From NCBI GenBank assembly GCA_035761265.1, contig DASTRL010000250.1, positions 4,166 through 68,165 on the forward strand: a stretch of 64,000 bases of DNA. The letters are read 5' to 3'. This document shows, one piece after another, positions 25,481 to 55,933 of this stretch (positions are counted from its first letter, which is position 1; each line of letters opens with the position of its first letter). Under the pieces are notes generated by a model. The model did not search any database. It was not told the origin of the DNA and was given only the letters and a program-made list of their open reading frames with translations. A program made the position numbers and the translations under genes. The DNA is from Steroidobacteraceae bacterium. Its GTDB lineage: Bacteria > Pseudomonadota > Gammaproteobacteria > Steroidobacterales > Steroidobacteraceae.

Positions 25481-25625
25481 ACGCTTCCTCCGGGTGCCGG
25501 GATTATCGCAGGGAGTGCCTATGAGAACCCTTGACCTCCATCACAGACAAGCACCGATACCGGGGTCCTGTGGGAGATATTCAGGGGTCCCCCCGTGCCG
25601 ACCCCCATTTGCGGGCCCCCACAGA

Positions 25626-25659
25626 AAAGCCCCGGTGGCCTTGGGGCCGCCGGGGCTTT
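25626..25659 (-). terminator. Rho-independent terminator downstream of amtB
   Basis: AAAGCCCCGG...CCGGGGCTTT 10-bp stem. On the minus strand it is followed by TTTTCT. Confidence 0.7.
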
Positions 25660-25686
25660 CCTGGCTTTTTCGCCGTTCGTCGAGGA

Positions 25687-27084
25687 TCAGTCGTACGCGC
25701 GTTCGCCGTGCTCCGAGATGTCCAGGCCTTCGCGCTCCGTCTCCTCGTTCGGCCGCAGGCCGATCAGAGGCTTGAGGATCAGGAAGATGATGGCGGACAC
25801 CGTTCCAGACCACGCCAGCGTGATGGCGACACCCAGGGCCTGCACCCCGAACTGCGCGCCAATGCTCTCGAACGTGCCCACGCCGCCGAGCGACGGATGA
25901 CCGAGGATCGCGCACGACAGGGCACCGATGATGCCGCCGATGCAGTGCACGCCGAACACGTCCAGCGAGTCGTCGTAGCCCAGCATCTTCTTCAGGCCCG
26001 CGCAGGCCCACAGGCACACGAGTCCGACGACGATGCCGAGGATGATGGCGCCGGAAGGTCCGAGCACGCCGCAGGACGGCGTGATCGCCACGAGGCCGGC
26101 GACGGCACCTGATGCAGCGCCGAGCATGGTCGGCTTGCCGCGGAAGATCCATTCACCGAAGGTCCACGCCAGTGCCGCCACCGCGGTGCAGACGTACGTG
26201 TTCAGGAATACGAGGCCGGCGGCATTGTTGGCTTCCAGGCCCGAGCCCACGTTGAAGCCGAACCAGCCCACCCACAGCATCGCGGCGCCGATCATCACGT
26301 ACGGCACGTTGTGCGGCGGCATGGCCGCGGTGCCATAGCCGGTGCGCTTGCCGACAATCAGTGCGCCGACCAGGCCTGCGATACCCGCATTGATGTGCAC
26401 CACCGTGCCGCCCGCGTAATCGAGTGCGCCGAGCTTGAAGAGATAGCCCTCGGCGTACCAGACCATGCGCGCGATCGGCAGGTAGGCGAACGTGAACCAC
26501 AGTACCGCCCACAGCAGCACCGTGCCGAACTTGGTGCGCTCGGCGAAGGCGCCGATGGCGAGCGCGGTGGTGATGCCCGCGAACGTGGCCTGGAAAGCCA
26601 CGAACACGAACTCAGGGATCACGACGCCGCTGGTGAAAGTGGCCGCGTTGGAGTCCGCCGTGAGTCCGTGCATCAGGAAGCGGCTGGTATCGCCGATCCA
26701 TTCGCCGGGTCCGTTGAACGCCAGGCTGTAGCCGTAGATGACCCACAGCACCGTGCACACCGAGAAGATGATGAACACCTGCATGAAGGTGGACAGGACG
26801 TTCTTGGCGCGCACCATGCCGCCGTAGAACAGCGCGAGGCCCGGCACCGTCATCATGATCACCAGCAGCGTGGCGACGATCATCCATGCGGTGTCGCCCT
26901 TGTTGGGTACGGGAGCTGCCGCCGCGGCTTCCTGCGCGGCTGCCAGACCCGGTGCGAATGCGGCGAGGGCTCCGAACACCCCCGTGGCGAGCCACGCGGG
27001 CTTGCGTCCGAGCACCTTTGGCAGTGCTGCGCCGAGACTGCGCATCAGGCTGCCACCCTTCGTTCTCTTCTTATCTGATTGCAT
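25687..27084 (-). CDS. amtB: ammonium transporter
   Basis: 465 aa with a signal sequence plus 11 TM helices and Amt family blocks (DTAWMIVATLLV, AGGTVVHINAG, DSLDVFGVHCIGG). Lies 22 nt downstream of glnK. Confidence 0.96.
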   Translation of the reverse strand: MQSDKKRTKGGSLMRSLGAALPKVLGRKPAWLATGVFGALAAFAPGLAAAQEAAAAAPVPNKGDTAWMIVATLLVIMMTVPGLALFYGGMVRAKNVLSTFMQVFIIFSVCTVLWVIYGYSLAFNGPGEWIGDTSRFLMHGLTADSNAATFTSGVVIPEFVFVAFQATFAGITTALAIGAFAERTKFGTVLLWAVLWFTFAYLPIARMVWYAEGYLFKLGALDYAGGTVVHINAGIAGLVGALIVGKRTGYGTAAMPPHNVPYVMIGAAMLWVGWFGFNVGSGLEANNAAGLVFLNTYVCTAVAALAWTFGEWIFRGKPTMLGAASGAVAGLVAITPSCGVLGPSGAIILGIVVGLVCLWACAGLKKMLGYDDSLDVFGVHCIGGIIGALSCAILGHPSLGGVGTFESIGAQFGVQALGVAITLAWSGTVSAIIFLILKPLIGLRPNEETEREGLDISEHGERAYD

Positions 27085-27942: not shown

Positions 27943-27997
27943 AAATTCGCGACATAACGGCCGCAACCCAGGGAGGGGAAGGGGTCATGGTGGAATC

Positions 27998-30132: not shown

Positions 30133-30209
30133 TGGCGCGCCCGACAGGATTCGAACCTGTGACCTACGGCTTCGGAAACCGTCACTCTATCCAGCTGAGC
30201 TACGGGCGC
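30133..30209 (-). tRNA. tRNA-Arg (anticodon CCG)
   Basis: Hand-folded 77-nt cloverleaf: GCGCCCG acceptor, GCTC/GAGT D stem, ACGGT/GCCGT anticodon stem with loop TTCCGAA, ACAGG/CCTGT T stem with TTCGAAT loop, encoded CCA. Nearly identical to enterobacterial tRNA-Arg(CCG). Confidence 0.95.
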
Positions 30210-32652: not shown

Positions 32653-33279
32653 ATGGTCTTGCGGGCTCCCTGGAAGGCCGCGAATTGTACACTAGCCTTC
32701 GTGCAATTCCCCAAAGCGCGCTTCCTGCTCTCGGTGGCGAACGCCGACCAGTTTCCCGCCGAGCCAGGCCGCGAGGTCGCGTTCGCCGGCCGTTCCAACG
32801 CGGGCAAGTCGAGCGCCATCAACTGCATCACGGCGCGACTCGGCCTGGCGCGAACCAGCAAGACCCCGGGCCGTACCAAACTACTGAACTTCTTCGAGCT
32901 CGAGCCCGGCCGTCGCATCATCGACCTGCCCGGCTATGGCTATGCCGAGGCGAGCCCCGCCGAGCGCGAGCAATGGACGCGCCTCATCGAGCTCCTGCCG
33001 GCACGGGAGTTTCTCACCGGCTTGTTCCTCATCGTCGACATCCGGCGGGGGATCACTCCTCAGGACGGACAGCTGATCGCCTGGGCGGCGGCAGCCGGCT
33101 GGCAGGTGCACGTCCTGCTGACCAAGTCCGACAAGCTCAATCAACGCGAACGCTCGGCGGCCCTGAAGGAAGCGCAGCAGAAGCTCGCTCCGGGCATGAC
33201 CGCCCAAGTCTTCTCGTCCCTCGACCGCACGGGCGTGAAAGAGGCGCAATCCCGCCTGCTCGCGATGCTTGGGAACTGA
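32653..33279 (+). CDS. engB: ribosome biogenesis GTP-binding protein YihA/EngB
   Basis: G1 AFAGRSNAGKSS, G3 DLPGYG, G4 TKSDK. The start is ATG 32653, or GTG 32701. Divergent from the cytochrome c4 gene. Confidence 0.92.
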   Translation: MVLRAPWKAANCTLAFVQFPKARFLLSVANADQFPAEPGREVAFAGRSNAGKSSAINCITARLGLARTSKTPGRTKLLNFFELEPGRRIIDLPGYGYAEASPAEREQWTRLIELLPAREFLTGLFLIVDIRRGITPQDGQLIAWAAAAGWQVHVLLTKSDKLNQRERSAALKEAQQKLAPGMTAQVFSSLDRTGVKEAQSRLLAMLGN

Positions 33280-33297
33280 GTTCCGGACTGTTCACGG

Positions 33298-33322
33298 ACG
33301 GCGCCGTTTCGGCGCCGTTTTC
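33298..33322 (+). terminator. Rho-independent terminator of engB
   Basis: ACGGCGCC-GTTTC-GGCGCCGT hairpin followed by TTTCC. Confidence 0.65.
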
Positions 33323-33342
33323 CACCGTGGGCGGCAGCCCTC

Positions 33343-33455
33343 AAAAAGAAAGCCCCGGTGGTAAACCACCGGGGCCAGACTAACCCGGCACAGGTCTCGT
33401 GAACCGGGCTACCCGCTCAGGGAGGGAAGCGGGGAGCGGTTTTACGCGCTCAGGT
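33343..33455 (-). ncRNA. candidate ~113-nt sRNA (sigma-E-type promoter to intrinsic terminator), syntenic with Spot 42/ErsA position
   Basis: A promoter-like element lies at 33458-33485. The predicted transcript has a hairpin exposing the C/U-rich tract CCCGCTTCCCTCCCT (about 33419-33434). A second hairpin is AGCCCGG...CCGGGTT. The terminator is GCCCCGGTGG-TTTA-CCACCGGGGC followed by TTTCTTTTT (33343-33375). No ORF with an RBS. The ends are predictions only. Confidence 0.45.
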
Positions 33456-33457
33456 GT

Positions 33458-33485
33458 TGAGACACCTGGCGTCCGAGAAAGGTTC
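33458..33485 (-). promoter_or_regulatory. sigma-E/AlgU-type promoter (GAACCT-N17-TCTCA)
   Basis: The minus strand reads GGAACCTTTCTCGGACGCCAGGTGTCTCAA. It matches the ECF sigma-E consensus GGAACTT-N16/17-TCnnA and lies 64 nt downstream of the OMP stop. Confidence 0.5.
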
Positions 33486-33548
33486 CAAAATTTCGAAAAA
33501 ACTTTGGCCCAAAATCATGTGGTTACGATGCGACCTGTGGTGCCGATG

Positions 33549-34115
33549 CTACAGAAACGTATACGTGACACTGAGCGACAAGGTGCGCATGTCGTTGTTG
33601 ACGTCGTCGTCGAACGACTCGGCCTTGAACTGCTCGTACTCCAGTCGCGCGCCGATGCTGCCGAAGTGCAGCCCGACACCCAGGCCGTACAGCGGCTCGA
33701 CGCCATCGTCGGAGGTGCTGCCAACCCCGGAGAGACGGAAATCCGAATCCCATTTGGCCACGCCGAGCTTGGCATACAGGTCGACGATGCCGACCTCCGC
33801 GATGAACAGCGCCGAGGCCGTGAGCGCGGTCGAATCGATCGACACGCCGCTGCCGTCATTGAACGACGCCGTACCCAGATCCATGTAGTTTGCCTCGACC
33901 GCGAGCCAGTCGAGCGGCCGGATTCCCGCGATGATCTTGAAGGAACTGTCGTCCAGCGTCTCGCTGTCGTTGATCTGATCGACGCTGAGCTTGAAATCCG
34001 TGCGGGTGACGCCGGCGCCCAGATAAAAGCCGTTGTCCGCGGCTCTTGCCTCGGGTGCAAAAGCGGCCAGTGCGATGGTGCCGAGCAGCGCGAGCGCGGC
34101 GAACTTCATGTTCAT
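33549..34115 (-). CDS. small outer-membrane beta-barrel protein (OmpA-like beta-barrel / porin family PF13505-like)
   Basis: 188 aa with a signal peptide ending ARA-AD, alternating amphipathic beta strands and a C-terminal aromatic (SLSVTYTFL). Confidence 0.88.
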   Translation of the reverse strand: MNMKFAALALLGTIALAAFAPEARAADNGFYLGAGVTRTDFKLSVDQINDSETLDDSSFKIIAGIRPLDWLAVEANYMDLGTASFNDGSGVSIDSTALTASALFIAEVGIVDLYAKLGVAKWDSDFRLSGVGSTSDDGVEPLYGLGVGLHFGSIGARLEYEQFKAESFDDDVNNDMRTLSLSVTYTFL

Positions 34116-34155
34116 GTGAGACCTCTCCTACGGTGGTTAGGAACAGCGGTCCGGA

Positions 34156-34183
34156 TTAGAGAACGAAATGCATTAACGGTTCC
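34156..34183 (-). promoter_or_regulatory. sigma-E-type promoter upstream of the OMP gene (GGAACC-N17-TCTAA)
   Basis: The minus strand reads GGAACCGTTAATGCATTTCGTTCTCTAAT. The predicted start is about 35 nt upstream of the ATG, with a GGAGAGG RBS in between. Confidence 0.5.
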
Positions 34184-34312
34184 TGAACCGCATGATCACA
34201 TTGTGACGCGCCGCTCGTTTCGCCGCACGCACTGTCGTCGCACGCCGACAAACAAACTCTGTTAGGCGGGGCGGGAGATACCGGCAGTATCACCGCACGC
34301 TACCGGGGCTCG

Positions 34313-37090
34313 CTAGTGCGCCTTGTCCCAATCCGGGCCCGTGCCCAGGTCCACCCGCAGCGGCACGCGCAATGCCGCGGCGTTCATCATGTGCTCGCGC
34401 ACCGCGGCGCCGACCTCGGCCACGCGCGCCGCCTCGACCTCGAGCACCAGCTCGTCGTGCACCTGCATGATGAGGCGCGCGCCGCCGCGCTCGGTGCACA
34501 TGCGATCGACGGCGATCATGGCGCGCTTGATGATGTCGGCGGCCGTGCCCTGCATCGGCGCATTGATCGCGGCGCGTTCCGCCGCCTGCTGGAACTGCTT
34601 GTTGCGCGAGTTGATGTCGGGCAGGTAGAGCCGTCGGCCGAACACCGTCTCGACGTAGCCCTGCGACCTGGCCTGCGCGCGCGTTTCCTCCATGTAACGC
34701 TTCACGCCCGGATAGCGCGCAAAGTACAGGTCGATGTACTCCTGTGCCGTGCCGCGCGGGATGCCGAGCTGCTTCGACAGGCCGAACGCGCTCATGCCGT
34801 AGATCAACCCGAAGTTCACGGCCTTGGCGGAGCGGCGCTGGTCCGCCGTGACGGCATCCAGCGGAGTGCCGAACACCTCGGACGCGGTGGCCTGGTGGAT
34901 GTCGCGGTCCGCGGCGAACGCGCCTAACAACCCATCGTCGCCCGACAGGTGCGCCATGATGCGCAGCTCGATCTGCGAGTAGTCCGCGGCCAGCAGCATG
35001 TGCCCCGGCGGCGCGATGAAGGCCTGGCGGATGCGCCGGCCCTCGGGCGTGCGGATCGGGATGTTCTGCAGGTTGGGATCCTGTGAAGAGAGCCGGCCGG
35101 TGGCCGCCACCGCCTGGTGATAGCTGGTGTGCACGCGGCCGGTCCTGGGATTGATCTGCTCCGGCAGCTTGTCGATGTACGTCGACTTGAGCTTCGACAG
35201 GTTGCGGTGCTCGAGGATCAGTTTCGGCAGTGGATAGCTCTCGGCGAGCTCCTCGAGCACGTCCTCGGCCGTGGACGGCTGGCCGGTCGGCGTCTTGCGC
35301 AGCACCGGCAGCTGCATCTTCTCGAACAGCACCGTGCCGAGCTGCTTCGGCGAGTCGAGGTTGAACGGCGCGCCGGCTTCCTTGTGCGCCAGCGCGAGCA
35401 GGTCCATGAGACGCTTCGCGAGCTCATTGCCTTGCGTGCGCAGCATCTGCCGGTCCAGCAGCACGCCGTGCTCCTCCATGCGGGTCAGCACCGGCACCAG
35501 CGGTTGCTCGATCTCCTCGTAGACCCTGGTCAGCGCCGGCACCGTCGTGATCTGCGGCCAGAGCACCTGGTGCAGGCGCAGCGTCACGTCGGCATCCTCG
35601 GCGGAGTATTCCGCGGCCTTGTCCACCGGCACCTGGCTGAAGGGAATCTGCTTGGCGCCCTTGCCGGCGACGTCCTCGTAGTGAATGGTGCGCATGCCGA
35701 GATACTTCTCGGCGGCCGAGTCCATGTCGTGGCGGATGGCGACGCTGTTCCACACGTACGACTCGAGCATCGAGTCGTAGCGCATGCCGCGCAGCGTGAT
35801 GCCGTGGTTGGCCAGCACGTGCGCGTCGTACTTGAGGTGATGGCCGACCTTGGCATGTTGCTCCGACTCGAGCAGTGGCTTGAGCCGCACGAGGCTGGCA
35901 TCGCGATCGAGCTGATCCGGCGCACCCGCGTAGTCGTGTCGCAGGGGCAGGTACGCAGCGCGCCCCGGCGCGATCGCGAACGAAACGCCGACGATTTCCG
36001 CCTTGGTGTACTCGAGGCTGGTGGTTTCGGTGTCCAGCGCAAACAGCTCCGCGCCCTCGAGCAGCTTCAGCCATTCCTCGAACTGCGCCGCGCTGGTGAT
36101 GGTGTCGTAGTGCCGCGGCGCCGCCGCGATGATCTGTGCGCCGTCATTGAGCACGGCGCCGGGCGCGCCCTCGATGGTCGGCTGCCCGCTCGCCGTCGGC
36201 GCGTCGGGCGCGGTGGGTGTGGGCGCGGATGTACCGCCGCCGTCCAGCTGTCGCAGCAGCGTCCGGAGCTCGAGACGCGTGTACAGCGTGCGCAGCGCCT
36301 CGATGTCGGGTGGCCTGCGGCGCAGCTCGTCCATCGACAGGGGCAGTGGGATATCGGTACGAATGGTCGCGAGCTTGCGTGCGAGATCCAGCGTTGCCAG
36401 GCCGGCGCGCAGGTTTTCGCCCACCTTGCCGCCGACATTTGCGGCATCCGCCACCAGCTTGTCGAGCGTGACGTACTGGCCGAGCCACTTGGCCGCGGTC
36501 TTGGGTCCCACCTTGTCGATGCCGGGAATGTTGTCGGAGCTGTCGCCCACGAGCGCCAGGTAGTCGATGATCTGTTCCGGCCAGACGTCGAACTTGCTTT
36601 TCACCCCTTCGCGATCGAGAACCGTGTTGCTCATGGTGTTGATCAGCGTGATCCGGGGCGAGACCAGCTGCGCCATGTCCTTGTCGCCGGTCGAGATCAG
36701 TACGCTCAGGTTCTGTTGCGCAGCCGCGCAGGCCAGTGTGCCGATGACGTCGTCGGCCTCCACGCCCGGCTCGCGCAGGATCGGCAATCCCATCCCCTTG
36801 ACCGCCGCGAACAGCGGCTCGATCTGCGCGCGCAGATCGTCCGGCATCGGTGGGCGATGCGCCTTGTATTCTGCGAACAGCTCGTCCCGAAAAGTCTTGC
36901 CCGAGGCGTCGAAGACCACCGCGATGCGTTCGGGCTCGTAGTCCTTCAGGAACTTGTTGAGCATGTTGAGCACGCCGAACACCGCACCGGTGGGCTCGCC
37001 GCGCGAGTTCGTGAACGGCGGGAGCGCATGAAAGGCGCGATACAGGTACGACGATCCGTCGACCAGCACCAGGTCGGGGCGTGGACTCAT
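34313..37090 (-). CDS. polA: DNA polymerase I
   Basis: 925 aa with 5'-3' exonuclease, 3'-5' exonuclease and polymerase domains (motif A DYSQIELR, motif B RRSAKAVNFGLIYG, motif C QVHDEL). Confidence 0.98.
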   Translation of the reverse strand: MSPRPDLVLVDGSSYLYRAFHALPPFTNSRGEPTGAVFGVLNMLNKFLKDYEPERIAVVFDASGKTFRDELFAEYKAHRPPMPDDLRAQIEPLFAAVKGMGLPILREPGVEADDVIGTLACAAAQQNLSVLISTGDKDMAQLVSPRITLINTMSNTVLDREGVKSKFDVWPEQIIDYLALVGDSSDNIPGIDKVGPKTAAKWLGQYVTLDKLVADAANVGGKVGENLRAGLATLDLARKLATIRTDIPLPLSMDELRRRPPDIEALRTLYTRLELRTLLRQLDGGGTSAPTPTAPDAPTASGQPTIEGAPGAVLNDGAQIIAAAPRHYDTITSAAQFEEWLKLLEGAELFALDTETTSLEYTKAEIVGVSFAIAPGRAAYLPLRHDYAGAPDQLDRDASLVRLKPLLESEQHAKVGHHLKYDAHVLANHGITLRGMRYDSMLESYVWNSVAIRHDMDSAAEKYLGMRTIHYEDVAGKGAKQIPFSQVPVDKAAEYSAEDADVTLRLHQVLWPQITTVPALTRVYEEIEQPLVPVLTRMEEHGVLLDRQMLRTQGNELAKRLMDLLALAHKEAGAPFNLDSPKQLGTVLFEKMQLPVLRKTPTGQPSTAEDVLEELAESYPLPKLILEHRNLSKLKSTYIDKLPEQINPRTGRVHTSYHQAVAATGRLSSQDPNLQNIPIRTPEGRRIRQAFIAPPGHMLLAADYSQIELRIMAHLSGDDGLLGAFAADRDIHQATASEVFGTPLDAVTADQRRSAKAVNFGLIYGMSAFGLSKQLGIPRGTAQEYIDLYFARYPGVKRYMEETRAQARSQGYVETVFGRRLYLPDINSRNKQFQQAAERAAINAPMQGTAADIIKRAMIAVDRMCTERGGARLIMQVHDELVLEVEAARVAEVGAAVREHMMNAAALRVPLRVDLGTGPDWDKAH

Positions 37091-54071: not shown

Positions 54072-55933
54072 CACAGCTTCGGCGAGAAATTGAGATGCAG
54101 GCGCGGACCGGGACGCGCCGTGCTGCCGGGTGGAATGGTCAGCGCCTGCGCCACGTCGATGCCGACGGAGACCACGGGCAGCCGCAGGCGGATGCCGACG
54201 CCCACCGAATACATGAGCGGGTCGCCGAAGTTGTCGAAGGCATTGCCCACGTCGCCGAACACGGCAACCGAAAGACTCTTCCATGGCAGGTCGCGGATCA
54301 GCTCCACGGAGGCCGCGAGCAGATGCTTGCCACCCACCTTTTCCAGCACCGGCTCGCCGTTCTCATCGAACTTCGGCGAGCCGTCCGCGTTGGTGGCCTG
54401 CGCGACGGGTGAGAGGTCGTTGACACCGAAGCCGCGCACGCTGCGGTCGCCGCCCGCGAAGAAGCGCTGCGAGGGGGCCAGCCCGCTGGTGCGCGACAGC
54501 GCGGTCGCGCCCACTTCGCCGCGCATGTAGACGTGCCACTTGGGTGCGCGCTCGAAATCGAATACGCGCTCGGCCTGGACGTGTGCCTGCAGGAAGTTCG
54601 AGTCCGAGCCCAGCGCGCTGTGCGAGCCGCGCAGCTCCAGGAACAGCGTGCGGCTGAACAATGCCTCGCCGAGGTAGTTGGGGGGGACCAGTGCGAGACT
54701 GATGCCCGGGATCAGCAGTGTCTGTTCATCGATGCGGTCCGATTCCACGAACCTGGAGCGCGTGTCGAGCAGCTCGACATAGGTCACGCGCTGCCAGTCG
54801 TTCCTGCCGAACCAGGAGTGGCGCACGTGCGTGAACCCGGGCGTGAAGTTGATCGACTGGTCGTCGATGTCCGCGAGACGTTCGTGCTCGCCCGCGAGCT
54901 GCATCGTGAATTTCTCGGTGGCCGGGTCGCCGATCGGCACGATGTAGGCTGCGTCGAGCGACTGCGCCAGCGCCGCGGCCCGCATTTCCGTGCGGAACCG
55001 GTGCCCGGCCCGATTCACACGCCGGTCTTCCCAGGAAATCGTGCCGCGCGCCTGCGTGTCGGTGCCATAACCGACGCCGTACTGGATGCGGTGGCGGCGG
55101 TTGGGTTCGGCCGTGATGCTGATGGGAACGGTGTGGTTGTCGCGATCGCGGTCCTCGGGAAGCACCTCGACGGTGGCGAAATACAGGCTGTCGTCCAGCG
55201 CGAACTGCGTGCGCAGCAGTTCGGTGGCGTTGAACTTCTCACCCTCCTGATAGCGCAGGAAGCGGCGCGCCAGCGATTCGTCGATGGTTTCCTGGTCGAT
55301 CGTGGTGGCGCCGAAGGTGTACTGCTCGCCGGTCTCGAATTCGATGCTCACGTCCGCGGTGCGCGCCTGCGGGTCGACGCGCATCTCGTTCTTCGACATG
55401 CGCGCATCGAGATAGCCGTAGGTGGCGGCGGCACGCAGCAGTCCGCCCTTCAGCGACTCGTAGTTCGAGTGGCTCAACCGGTCGCCGACCTGGATGGGCA
55501 GGTCGTTGGTGATGTTCGTGAACACCCGGTCGGATGCGCCCGGCCCCGTGACTTTCACGTCGACCGATTCGACGATCACCGGCTTGCCGGGAACCACGGT
55601 GACGATCACGCGGTAGTTCTGAGCGGTGCCGCTTTCGCGTTTCACCTCGGTGGTGACGGTGGGTTCGTAGTAGCCGAAGGGGCGCAACGCGGCGCGCACT
55701 TCGCGCTCGCTGCGTTCCTGCAGGCGCTCGACGAACTCCGGCGACAGGTCGTCCGATTCCTTGTAGCGCTCGAACGATAGATAGGCGAGCACGTTGGTGC
55801 GGATGTCTTCCTCGACGCCACGCACCTCGACCTCCAGTCCCCCGAATGCCGGCCCGGCGAGCATCGCGAGGAGCAGCGTGAGCAACGTGGTGGCGGGCGG
55901 GCGCGTGCGATGGTTGTTATGCAATGTCGACAT
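54071..55933 (-). CDS. tamA: translocation and assembly module outer-membrane subunit TamA (Omp85 family)
   Basis: About 620 aa from ATG 55933 with a signal peptide, POTRA repeats and an Omp85 beta-barrel ending ...LHLNFSPKL. The stop overlaps the tamB start. Confidence 0.92.
   Translation of the reverse strand: MSTLHNNHRTRPPATTLLTLLLAMLAGPAFGGLEVEVRGVEEDIRTNVLAYLSFERYKESDDLSPEFVERLQERSEREVRAALRPFGYYEPTVTTEVKRESGTAQNYRVIVTVVPGKPVIVESVDVKVTGPGASDRVFTNITNDLPIQVGDRLSHSNYESLKGGLLRAAATYGYLDARMSKNEMRVDPQARTADVSIEFETGEQYTFGATTIDQETIDESLARRFLRYQEGEKFNATELLRTQFALDDSLYFATVEVLPEDRDRDNHTVPISITAEPNRRHRIQYGVGYGTDTQARGTISWEDRRVNRAGHRFRTEMRAAALAQSLDAAYIVPIGDPATEKFTMQLAGEHERLADIDDQSINFTPGFTHVRHSWFGRNDWQRVTYVELLDTRSRFVESDRIDEQTLLIPGISLALVPPNYLGEALFSRTLFLELRGSHSALGSDSNFLQAHVQAERVFDFERAPKWHVYMRGEVGATALSRTSGLAPSQRFFAGGDRSVRGFGVNDLSPVAQATNADGSPKFDENGEPVLEKVGGKHLLAASVELIRDLPWKSLSVAVFGDVGNAFDNFGDPLMYSVGVGIRLRLPVVSVGIDVAQALTIPPGSTARPGPRLHLNFSPKL

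Follow-up and report, generated by a model that had tools for sequence, protein, structure and literature searches.

Anti-hemB was described in Weinberg 2007, which already favored an independent ncRNA. Its family (anti-hemB/ncS04, Rfam RF02837) includes ncS04 of Burkholderia cenocepacia J2315, a 105-nt transcript detected by Northern blot and dRNA-seq that has a primary transcription start site (TSS) by dRNA-seq and co-purifies with Hfq (Sass et al.). The level of ncS04 is flat in biofilm, stationary phase, starvation, NaCl, low pH, low iron, SDS and H2O2, and occlusion of ribosome binding sites (RBSs) by CU-rich unpaired regions has been proposed for the set of sRNAs to which it belongs (Sass et al.). 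The literature we searched names no regulator, target or function for anti-hemB/ncS04.

Spot 42 (spf) of Enterobacteriaceae is an Hfq-dependent, trans-acting repressor under CRP control that pairs through single-stranded regions. MicA, RybB and MicL of E. coli and Salmonella are Hfq-binding sRNAs transcribed from sigma-E promoters, and they lower the amounts of envelope proteins by means of single-stranded seeds at their 5′ ends. ErsA of Pseudomonas aeruginosa reportedly occupies the polA/engB gap. It is controlled by an envelope-stress ECF sigma factor (AlgU/sigma-22), depends on Hfq, represses translation of targets that include the porin OprD, and uses nt 26-56, which are U-rich and unstructured, for pairing. 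In the sX13 literature that RNA is Hfq-independent, and experiments show repression of mRNAs bearing G-rich RBS motifs by C-rich loops at the tips of its hairpins.

We analyzed a 64-kb stretch of DNA from a Steroidobacteraceae-like member of the Gammaproteobacteria, hereafter the window, whose minus strand carries a member of the anti-hemB/ncS04 family (Table 1). The RF02837 covariance model matches at 33344-33435 (-) over its full length, positions 1-81 (58.1 bits, E = 5.8e-11; Rfam gathering score 49.5 bits). The first-pass annotation had proposed an Rfam scan for Spot 42 and had not mentioned RF02837, the family that the scan returned. Membership in Spot 42 (RF00021) was rejected: the window reaches 23.7 bits where the gathering score is 80, the terminator drives that alignment, and in the reciprocal comparison our covariance model R1 scores E. 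coli spf at 11.8 bits. Our own models R1 (102.7 bits) and R2 (79.9 bits) bound the sRNA at 33343-33451, and the TSS of ncS04 was mapped at the equivalent place, giving a length of 105 nt (from the literature and our own count on locus L096). The predicted RNA holds no ATG, and its GTG frames are just 3 codons long or lie within the terminator, in line with the non-coding transcript claimed earlier. An independent sRNA gene with its own terminator, as the first-pass annotation had described, is supported.

Table 1. Features of the sRNA locus; positions are those of the window.
Feature	Position	Strand	Description and basis
polA	34313..37090	minus	Pfam DNA_pol_A and related domains; upstream, same strand
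OMP beta-barrel gene	33549..34115	minus	188 aa; Pfam OMP_b-brl, OmpA_membrane
-35 box	33480..33486	minus	GGAACCT, sigma-E (ECF02/RpoE/AlgU) type; pattern match and conservation
-10 box	33458..33462	minus	TCTCA (GTCTCA with preceding G); 17-nt spacer from -35 box
Predicted TSS	~33451 (33450-33452)	minus	G; -10 spacing and conserved GAG opening P0
Predicted sRNA	33343..33451	minus	~109 nt; RF02837 match and own covariance models
P0, 5′ hairpin	33434..33451	minus	GAGCG...CGCUC; absent from RF02837 model
P1 hairpin	33412..33433	minus	CCCGCUU/GAGCGGG; loop CCCUCCCU at 33426-33419
P2 hairpin	33381..33411	minus	GCCCGG...CCGGGU, loop UUCACGAGACCUGUG; 6/6 pairs covary family-wide
Rho-independent terminator	33343..33376	minus	11-bp GC-rich stem, loop UUUA, tail UUCUUUUU; terminator scan
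engB/yihA GTPase gene	32653..33279	plus	Pfam MMR_HSR1; convergent

The family set used for comparison comprises at least 120 loci, an arbitrary subset retrieved with P1 as the search pattern. The subfamily of the window copy sits at the edge of the RF02837 model: passing members score 51-58 bits, one locus (L088) reaches 48.3 bits, and three others (L008, L053, L100) are missing from the gathering-level list. Like anti-hemB/ncS04, the window RNA (109 vs 105 nt) has a 5′ hairpin, a P1 hairpin with a CU-rich loop, a P2 hairpin and a terminator, and it shares the convergent engB and cytochrome c4 neighbors. It differs from the anti-hemB consensus in P2 and in a loop one nucleotide shorter than UCCCCGCuUCuCCUCCCUGaGCGGG. 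Unlike anti-hemB/ncS04, it has no hemB in the window, and polA lies ahead of it, joined in some subfamily loci by an OMP gene. Unlike Burkholderia ncS04, it carries a sigma-E-type promoter motif, and its host lies outside the Burkholderiales.

The promoter motif GGAACCT-N17-TCTCA, claimed in the first-pass annotation, is present on the minus strand at 33486-33458. Boxes and spacer were described correctly, and since the -35 box lies at 33486-33480 the start given earlier (33485) is one base off. The motif equals what we take to be the RpoE/AlgU consensus of Rhodius 2006 and Firoved 2002. The pattern GGAACY-N17/18-TCNNA has 3 matches in the window versus 0.92 expected, and 3 were reached in 7/100 shuffles, a weakly significant and at most suggestive excess over chance for the window by itself. 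Each of the three lies between genes, in the orientation of an envelope-related feature, namely the sRNA, the OMP gene (match at 34183-34156) and a tamA-like Omp85 gene (match at 55998-55970, 37 nt ahead of the ATG). Conservation of the box ahead of the OMP gene is absent in the other OMP-bearing loci.

Across relatives, the match upstream of the sRNA is far beyond chance. The first-pass annotation had proposed checking the conservation of the promoter, and we find both boxes kept in position and sequence in at least 41 distinct loci of several orders, as nGGAACTT-N16/17-TCnnA ending 20-24 nt before the conserved hairpin P1. In the 130 nt upstream of 128 loci, 47 of the ~51 matches listed end at this distance, and chance would yield ~2 matches at any position. 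In these loci (n at least 41) the -35 element, nGGAAC(T/C)(T), is held at constant distance while its flanks and the spacer vary; the -10 element reads (A/G)TC(T/C)nA, its end lying 20-24 nt ahead of CCCCGC. Carriers of the boxes include Steroidobacteraceae-type MAGs, Azoarcus/Aromatoleum, Accumulibacter, Rhodocyclaceae, Sulfuricella, Usitatibacteraceae and Burkholderiales MAGs. What is new here is that, as judged from sequence, the window copy and ~40 relatives bear a conserved sigma-E-type promoter, which suggests a candidate regulator for the anti-hemB/ncS04 family and leads us to infer that the window promoter depends on sigma-E.

Alternatively, the housekeeping sigma factor could transcribe the same sRNA constitutively, which seems to be the case for ncS04, and GGAAC...TCnnA would then go unused by any ECF sigma factor. 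The copies in Comamonadaceae and Burkholderia have sigma-70-type promoters (in Burkholderia/ncS04 a sigma-70 extended -10), so sigma-E is dispensable for the family, and ncS04 was flat in every condition tested. That flatness, however, was recorded for a copy with the sigma-70 extended -10 and not a sigma-E-type promoter. No sigma-70-like promoter was found in 33100-34400, both boxes stand at fixed spacing in at least 41 loci from which sigma-70 hexamers are absent, and a like box precedes the tamA-like gene and the OMP gene in the window. We consider constitutive expression an unlikely account of the window copy.

The gene order in the window is polA-(OMP)-sRNA-><-engB. The first-pass annotation had likened this to the position of Spot 42, and the order and orientation polA -> sRNA -> <- engB/yihA are indeed identical to those at spf in E. 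coli. The gene upstream is polA in Steroidobacteraceae-type loci, which defines the polA-locus position of the sRNA, and the OMP gene is a variable neighbor (~11/26 related loci listed) outside the sRNA unit. The synteny partner that the family has kept is convergent engB, which occurs in loci of Steroidobacteraceae type, Burkholderiaceae and Rhodocyclales; in the window it is followed downstream by cytochrome c4.

The stretch from polA through the OMP gene to the sRNA showed no terminator; that of the sRNA is the sole terminator-like site within 33100-34400, and OMP transcripts probably end there. Since the polA-OMP run is free of terminators and polA ends 58-99 nt before P1 in several relatives, read-through transcripts must include the sRNA, and the RNA might arise chiefly by processing of the OMP or polA mRNA, or be no more than the 3′ UTR and terminator of such an mRNA. 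Against this, the promoter is conserved directly upstream of the sRNA in all 26 subfamily loci listed, whatever the upstream gene, and ncS04 has a primary TSS by dRNA-seq. In Betaproteobacteria the upstream hemB is divergent, so read-through is impossible there. Because promoter and sRNA are kept where the OMP gene is missing, origin as a 3′-UTR product of that gene, which the first-pass annotation had raised, is unlikely to be the main route. Primary transcription and read-through processing could coexist; processing as the principal source strikes us as quite unlikely.

The predicted RNA has a folding energy of -57.5 kcal/mol (z = -5.1), and covariation supports four hairpins, P0, P1, P2 and the terminator. 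In the subfamily alignment 96.5% of cells are paired, with 58 double-change cells versus 22.9 in shuffles (0/500); the family-wide alignment has 487 versus 151 (0/500). We judged P0 both by a direct helix count and by model-based alignment: 93/110 listed loci have a helix of 5 bp or more directly next to P1, versus 30% at displaced anchors, a C-G pair is replaced by U-A in 11/26 relatives, and 4/5 pairs covary family-wide. The intrinsic terminator claimed earlier was recovered, with the DNA stem GGCCCCGGTGG/CCACCGGGGCT at 33376-33351 (11 pairs), loop TTTA and tail TTCTTTTT running to 33343; 7/12 of its pairs covary in the subfamily and 11/12 family-wide. A different first hairpin, ACCGCUC/GAGCGGGU, had been drawn in the first-pass annotation and is refuted as a conserved fold by covariation: it shows zero compensatory changes, and of its seven pairs one is broken in 23 and another in 11 of the 26 relatives. 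The C/U-rich tract that was said to lie in a hairpin loop is nevertheless exposed, as CCCUCCCU in the P1 loop of the covariation-backed fold. The window RNA is nearly fully paired, its exposed tract is this C-rich loop, and P1 has its only C-rich loop.

P1 is invariant in all members among the matches listed, and its stem never covaries, unlike P0, P2 and the terminator; this invariance is partly circular, as P1 was the search pattern, and the RF02837 consensus independently shows P1 as highly conserved. An invariant stem and loop, together with the binding of ncS04 by Hfq, could mean that the RNA acts by binding protein, as a recognition hairpin or an anti-Shine-Dalgarno decoy, and not by base-pairing. 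But part of the invariance was imposed by the search, known protein-binding motifs (e.g., GGA repeats) are absent, and RBS regions are what sX13 acts on through its loops, as has been proposed for the CU-rich parts of related Burkholderia sRNAs. We hold action by protein binding to be improbable.

A cis-acting or antisense element would control hemB or the convergent engB rather than distant mRNAs. Among the matches listed, hemB adjoins the sRNA in 76/120 loci and convergent engB is the most conserved neighbor, and a 2026 preprint proposes antisense control of heme synthesis. However, hemB is found neither in the 64-kb window nor in the 25/25 subfamily loci among the matches listed, so there the sRNA must act in trans; adjacency to hemB is a feature of context, lacking in the window, and not part of the definition of RF02837. 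Loci that do have hemB carry it divergently from the sRNA and without overlap (the gap in L096 is 83 nt). Separate terminators serve the sRNA and engB, with 64 nt between the sRNA terminator and the engB stop codon, and Weinberg 2007 had come down on the side of an independent RNA. Antisense control seems to us very improbable. Reading of the promoter by the heat-shock factor sigma-32 can be given next to no weight: the boxes of one subclade (CTTGGAA-N14-CCCCATCT) also fit what we take to be the sigma-32 consensus, but the strict pattern occurs in 3/115 loci among the matches listed, the window not being one of them, and the window has AGGTG before the -10 box, not CCCCAT.

Our preferred reading, which we think reasonably probable, is that the locus is a stand-alone gene of the anti-hemB/ncS04 family for a ~109-nt trans-acting, sigma-E-driven, anti-Shine-Dalgarno sRNA. 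The RpoE/AlgU-type promoter GGAACCT-N17-TCTCA would direct transcription from ~33451, transcription would halt at the intrinsic terminator (33376-33343), and the RNA would adopt the P0, P1, P2 and terminator hairpins. The P1 loop, (C)CCUCCCU(G), would then pair, with Hfq, to G-rich RBS regions of target mRNAs and block the initiation of translation. An sRNA of this kind would presumably be induced by stress and serve as a regulatory RNA arm of the envelope-stress response, like MicA, RybB, MicL and ErsA. The loop CCCUCCCU is the putative seed, and it resembles the 16S anti-Shine-Dalgarno sequence.

Searches of the window for putative targets gave matches at chance level. Exact seed 8-mers are not enriched (16 observed versus ~27 in shuffles), and a duplex-energy scan of the GC-rich window returned 734 sites of -15 kcal/mol or lower. 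The RBS upstream of yifB/comM, offered in the first-pass annotation as an example of complementarity, is there (CAGGGAGGG-G-AAG at 27969-27981), but as a target it was rejected, its 9-mer match being at chance level and the seed 8-mers not enriched. Inspected by eye, neither the OMP gene nor the tamA-like gene has an RBS region with good complementarity to the loop.

The likenesses seen between the window sRNA and Spot 42, sX13 and ErsA are in position and design, and the profile searches did not demonstrate homology to Spot 42 or sX13. Like the window RNA, sX13 of Xanthomonadaceae is encoded after polA, on the polA strand, and has multiple hairpins and a terminator in ~115 nt. The sX13 model (RF02232, gathering score 50 bits) scores the window at 19.8 bits and relatives at 25.0 and 26.7; conversely, R1 finds sX13 in 39/45 loci at 17.5-27.1 bits with background reaching 20-22, and the family-wide model R2 leaves sX13 (17.5-24.3 bits) unseparated from background (21.3). 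Among 79 sX13 loci listed from a metagenome scan, none (0/79) had a sigma-E box and none (0/79) had engB downstream. Unlike the window RNA, sX13 consists of three stem-loops, each with an apical CCCC/CCCCC motif; some relatives of the window RNA have C-rich P2 and terminator loops. ErsA resembles the window sRNA in its AlgU/sigma-E-type promoter motif, which here is present and conserved and which the cognate sigma factor may use. In place of a U-rich single-stranded seed as in ErsA, the window RNA exposes a C-rich hairpin loop. ErsA may be regarded as a functional and positional analogue of the window sRNA, not as a demonstrated relative. MicA, RybB and MicL follow the same logic as that proposed for the window sRNA and are dissimilar to it in sequence and structure.

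These resemblances allow a speculation that we rate as rather unlikely, namely that the sRNA gene at polA/hemB-engB is one ancient locus of Beta- and Gammaproteobacteria, from which anti-hemB/ncS04, sX13, ErsA and Spot 42 descend and whose ancestor had a sigma-E-type promoter and a C-rich anti-Shine-Dalgarno loop. If so, promoters would have been swapped (sigma-70 in Burkholderia/Comamonadaceae, CRP in enterics) and seeds remodeled by lineage.

Anti-hemB/ncS04 is a widespread Hfq-binding sRNA that the 2026 preprint still reads as an antisense regulator of heme synthesis. The sigma-E-type promoter motif in a large part of the family, the subfamily without hemB and the P0 hairpin missing from the Rfam model would together recast it as a trans-acting envelope-stress RNA. 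With this locus, the repeated occurrence of sRNAs beside polA/engB (Spot 42, sX13 and, reportedly, ErsA) extends to another lineage, and the predicted promoters add a well-sampled case of promoter-class turnover inside one sRNA family.

A whole-window Rfam scan returned a single sRNA match above its gathering score, to the full model of RF02837 (anti-hemB, 'Burkholderia RNA 7') at 33344-33435 on the minus strand (58.1 bits, gathering 49.5, E = 5.8e-11), within the predicted ~109-nt sRNA of the engB/polA gap. This family identity had escaped the first-pass annotation, which looked to Spot 42 and ErsA; on the window sRNA the Spot_42 model remains far under threshold (23.7 bits, threshold 80), as do the sX13 (19.8 bits, threshold 50) and ncS037 (27.3 bits, threshold 112) models. 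Re-reading of the boxes and terminator placed the sRNA where it had been drawn to within one base, with the same terminator hairpin, loop and tail, and a reading of the predicted transcript agrees that it holds no ATG or credible ORF. The sRNA gene of the window is genuine and adds a new, divergent member to a known family.

Features of the sRNA gene and its neighbours (window coordinates)
Feature	Position	Strand	Basis or remark
-35 box GGAACCT	33486-33480	-	read from sequence
-10 box TCTCA, after 17-nt spacer	33462-33458	-	read from sequence
P0, 5' hairpin	33451-33434	-	RNAalifold
P1, loop CCCUCCCU	33433-33412	-	RNAalifold
P2	33411-33381	-	RNAalifold
Terminator	33376-33343	-	RNAalifold
Terminator hairpin, 11 bp, loop TTTA	33376-33351	-	stem closing GC-rich stretch
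Terminator tail TTCTTTTT	ends 33343	-	3' of terminator hairpin
OMP beta-barrel gene, 188 aa	33549-34115	-	flanking gene
polA	34313-37090	-	flanking gene
engB	32653-33279	+	convergent with sRNA
cytochrome c4, dsbA, corA	3' of engB		flanking genes
tRNA gene	30136-30209	-	RF00005, 67.8 bits; downstream of corA

The anti-hemB motif dates from a 2007 prediction, which considered it probably an independent betaproteobacterial ncRNA with a terminal terminator (PMC1950547). It is ncS04 of B. cenocepacia J2315, a 105-nt RNA encoded between BCAL0264 and BCAL0265, for which dRNA-seq mapped the TSS and Northern blot confirmed the size; it co-purifies with Hfq, and its level is flat in biofilm, stationary phase, starvation, glucose, NaCl, low pH and low iron and is not induced by brief exposure to SDS or H2O2 (PMC5688073, PMC4603805). 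The literature found on the family reports no regulator, target or function. A 2026 preprint links the family to low-salinity isolates and reads it as an antisense regulator of hemB, with no mention of promoter, sigma, RpoE, envelope, engB or Steroidobacter.

A search for the conserved P1 hairpin, in one genome per species, yielded at least 120 loci (L-numbers). Among the matches listed, a 24-nt P1 variant occurs in Burkholderiales, Rhodocyclales, Usitatibacteraceae and others, and the 23-nt variant of the window in Steroidobacteraceae and unclassified gammaproteobacterial MAGs. The window and 25 related loci form a subfamily (26 sequences) at the margin of the Rfam model: scores are 51-57 bits for L028, L019, L092 and L009 and 48.3 bits for L088 (gathering 49.5), and L008, L053 and L100 lie under the gathering threshold. 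The nearest relative among the matches listed is L028 (polA 84% identical), where the tRNA match downstream of corA is also seen; the exact OMP protein was found only on short metagenome contigs with the gene order of the window.

Convergent engB followed by cytochrome c4 is the conserved synteny partner of the sRNA among the loci listed. In betaproteobacteria hemB lies upstream and divergent (83 nt apart in B. lata); 76 of the 120 loci listed include it, none of the 25 subfamily loci does, and the whole 64-kb window has none. Subfamily members have polA upstream on the same strand. In between, only ~11 of the 26 loci carry the OMP gene; five of the remainder have 58-99 nt from the end of polA to P1. 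As the OMP gene and hemB are each absent from part of the sRNA loci, the sRNA is tied to neither and, judged from this gene order, the window copy would have to act in trans. L072, a Hylemonella MAG, has the P1 motif twice on one contig (58-81 and 245-268, 187 nt apart), so the sRNA gene may have been duplicated in tandem. A contig labelled Candidatus Saccharibacteria (L108) carries an anti-hemB copy with a 24-nt betaproteobacterial-type P1 loop and a sigma-70-type promoter, most likely a mis-binned MAG rather than presence in Saccharibacteria.

The 109-nt sRNA has a folding energy of -57.5 kcal/mol (z = -5.1), and the consensus fold of the 26 subfamily sequences (RNAalifold) has four hairpins. 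Paired cells make up 96.5% of this alignment, and double-change cells number 58 versus 22.9 in shuffles (0/500). Family-wide, in a model-based alignment of 94 distinct members that is itself fitted to structure, 96.3% of cells are paired versus 76.6% in shuffles, double-change cells number 487 versus 151, and covarying pairs occur in P0 (4/5), P2 (6/6) and the terminator (11/12). P0 is absent from the Rfam model, yet 93 of the 110 loci listed have a helix of 5 bp or more abutting P1, versus 30% at displaced anchors. The P1 stem and loop are invariant in the retrieved loci, which is partly circular because P1 was the search pattern; the Rfam consensus shows the same positions as conserved, independently of that search. 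The first hairpin originally drawn (ACCGCUC/GAGCGGGU) shows no compensatory change and is ruled out, two of its pairs being broken in 23 and 11 of the 26 sequences; the exposed CU-rich tract assigned to its loop sits in the P1 loop of the supported fold.

The exposed P1 loop resembles the 16S anti-SD and would pair with GGGAGG-type Shine-Dalgarno sequences, its complement. For this set of Burkholderia sRNAs, Sass et al. suggested that CU-rich unpaired regions occlude RBSs, citing Hfq binding for ncS04, and the apical C-rich loops of sX13 have been shown experimentally to repress mRNAs with G-rich RBS motifs. In the GC-rich window 734 sites pair with the sRNA at <= -15 kcal/mol, and exact matches to 8-mers of the seed show no enrichment (16 versus ~27 in shuffles); no target emerges from the window. 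The yifB/comM site put forward earlier (CAGGGAGGG, 27969-27977) is at chance level. Elsewhere in the window, a C-rich intergenic stretch (GGGGTCCCCCCGTGCCGACCCCCATTTGCGGGCCCCCACAG; 25540-25670, plus strand) adjoins a convergent ammonium-transporter gene (25687-27084, minus strand) and has a strong terminator at its end (AGCCCCGGTGGCC...GGCCGCCGGGGCTTT). Both of our sRNA models give it 20-21 bits; it could be another small RNA or just a structured 3' UTR.

Other sRNAs are known from the polA locus. The E. coli order polA, spf, convergent yihA/engB is exactly that of the window, but Spot 42 has no detectable similarity to the window sRNA by its Rfam model or a reciprocal search with our own model. 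ErsA, reported at the polA/engB position, is AlgU- and Hfq-dependent, represses algC and oprD, and has a U-rich, unstructured seed. The Spot 42/ErsA relation supported here is positional only. The literature places sX13 175 bp downstream of polA. Of 79 metagenomic sX13 loci, 71 have the end of polA ~195 nt upstream of stem-loop 2, and none of the 79 has engB nearby or a sigma-E box. The subfamily-built model matched 39 of 45 sX13 loci at 17.5-27.1 bits, against a background of up to 20-22 bits and 28-31 bits for the weakest true members; the Rfam sX13 model gave 19.8-26.7 bits on three anti-hemB members, and the family-wide model did not separate sX13 from background. With scores overlapping background, sX13 homology is not demonstrated. 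Betaproteobacterial sigma-E-type members (e.g. L010, L060, L089, L119) carry C-rich motifs in all three apical loops (P1 CUUCNCCUCCCUGA, P2 AAUCCCAAUU, terminator UUUACUCCCCUUUAG), and are more like sX13 with its three C-rich loops than the window RNA is. A conserved palindrome, GACAGGCGCAAYGCCTGT, lies across the annotated 5' end of sX13 in loci L128-L247 (for example at 1166-1182 in L149); if transcribed it would form a P0-like 5' hairpin, and otherwise it may be a protein-binding site.

A search of the 130-nt upstream regions of 128 loci listed for GAAC(T/C)N-N15-18-TCNNA gave ~51 matches, 47 with the -10 box ending 20-24 nt before CCCCGC, against an estimated ~2 expected by chance at any position. 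Common to 41 distinct loci listed is nGGAAC(T/C)(T)-N16/17-(A/G)TC(T/C)nA-N5/6-GAG, which equals the established RpoE/AlgU consensus. The G before GAAC (1.5 bits) and the two bases after it (1.3 and 0.8 bits) are informative although the search pattern did not fix them; spacers and flanks vary freely (0.0-0.3 bits per position). The 41 comprise all 26 subfamily sequences, including the window with GGAACCT-N17-TCTCA, and 15 betaproteobacterial loci (Azoarcus, Aromatoleum, Accumulibacter, Rhodocyclaceae, Sulfuricella, Usitatibacteraceae and Burkholderiales MAGs). The boxes recognized in the first-pass annotation are therefore present and conserved; their reading as sigma-E-dependent gains strong comparative support, and a sigma-E-type factor is the inferred user of the window promoter. 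Sigma-32 was rejected, its strict pattern fitting only 3 of 115 loci listed and not the window. Seven promoters of one subclade (L019, L023, L037, L057, L063, L103, L105) read (C)TTGGAACTT-N-CCCCATCTAA and fit the sigma-E consensus throughout; those of L023, L057 and L105 also fit the strict sigma-32 consensus, CTTGAAA-N13/14-CCCCATNT, and may for that reason be dual-use.

Within the window, GGAACY-N17/18-TCNNA occurs three times versus 0.92 expected, a mild over-representation, each time intergenic and co-oriented with an envelope-related feature (the sRNA, the OMP gene and a tamA-like gene). The OMP-gene box (GGAACCG-N16-TCTAA, 34183-34156, minus strand) lies 40 nt upstream of the ATG at 34115 and recurs in near-identical metagenome contigs; it is not conserved in the more distant OMP-bearing loci listed, L107 being the only match there. 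The tamA-like box (GGAACCC-N17-TCTCA, 55998-55970, minus strand) ends 37 nt before the ATG at 55933, in the 85 nt that separate a TANGO2-family gene from the tamA-like gene (POTRA_TamA_1 plus Omp85). That ATG opens a signal peptide, and the annotated GTG start (56005) is probably incorrect.

In 33100-34400 no terminator-like site was seen other than that of the sRNA, so OMP and polA transcripts probably stop there too and could add a processed pool of the sRNA. The predicted main route is independent transcription from its own promoter, because this promoter is kept whatever gene lies upstream and ncS04 has a primary TSS; of the two origins first envisaged, the OMP 3' UTR is unlikely as the main source. 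A small hairpin just past the engB stop codon (GGCGCCG-TTT-CGGCGCC then GTTTTCC, ~33300-33323, plus strand) is probably engB's own, separate terminator.

Elsewhere in the family, 38 loci listed, mainly Comamonadaceae, have sigma-70 promoters of the TTGAAA-N17-TAAATT type instead. Burkholderia, Paraburkholderia and Pandoraea promoters read TGGTATAT(C/G)AT, and by our count on L096 from the 105-nt length the ncS04 TSS falls just 3' of this box. Paraburkholderia loci such as L032, L039, L042 and L095 have GGAAACTT-N17-TCATA-N6-GAG overlapping the TGGTATATCAT sigma-70-type -10 box; this sequence resembles a sigma-E box that is decayed or hybrid and has gained one base in its -35 element. With both sigma-E-type and sigma-70-type promoters, one sRNA family shows promoter-class turnover, which makes the flat level of ncS04 a poor guide to the window copy.
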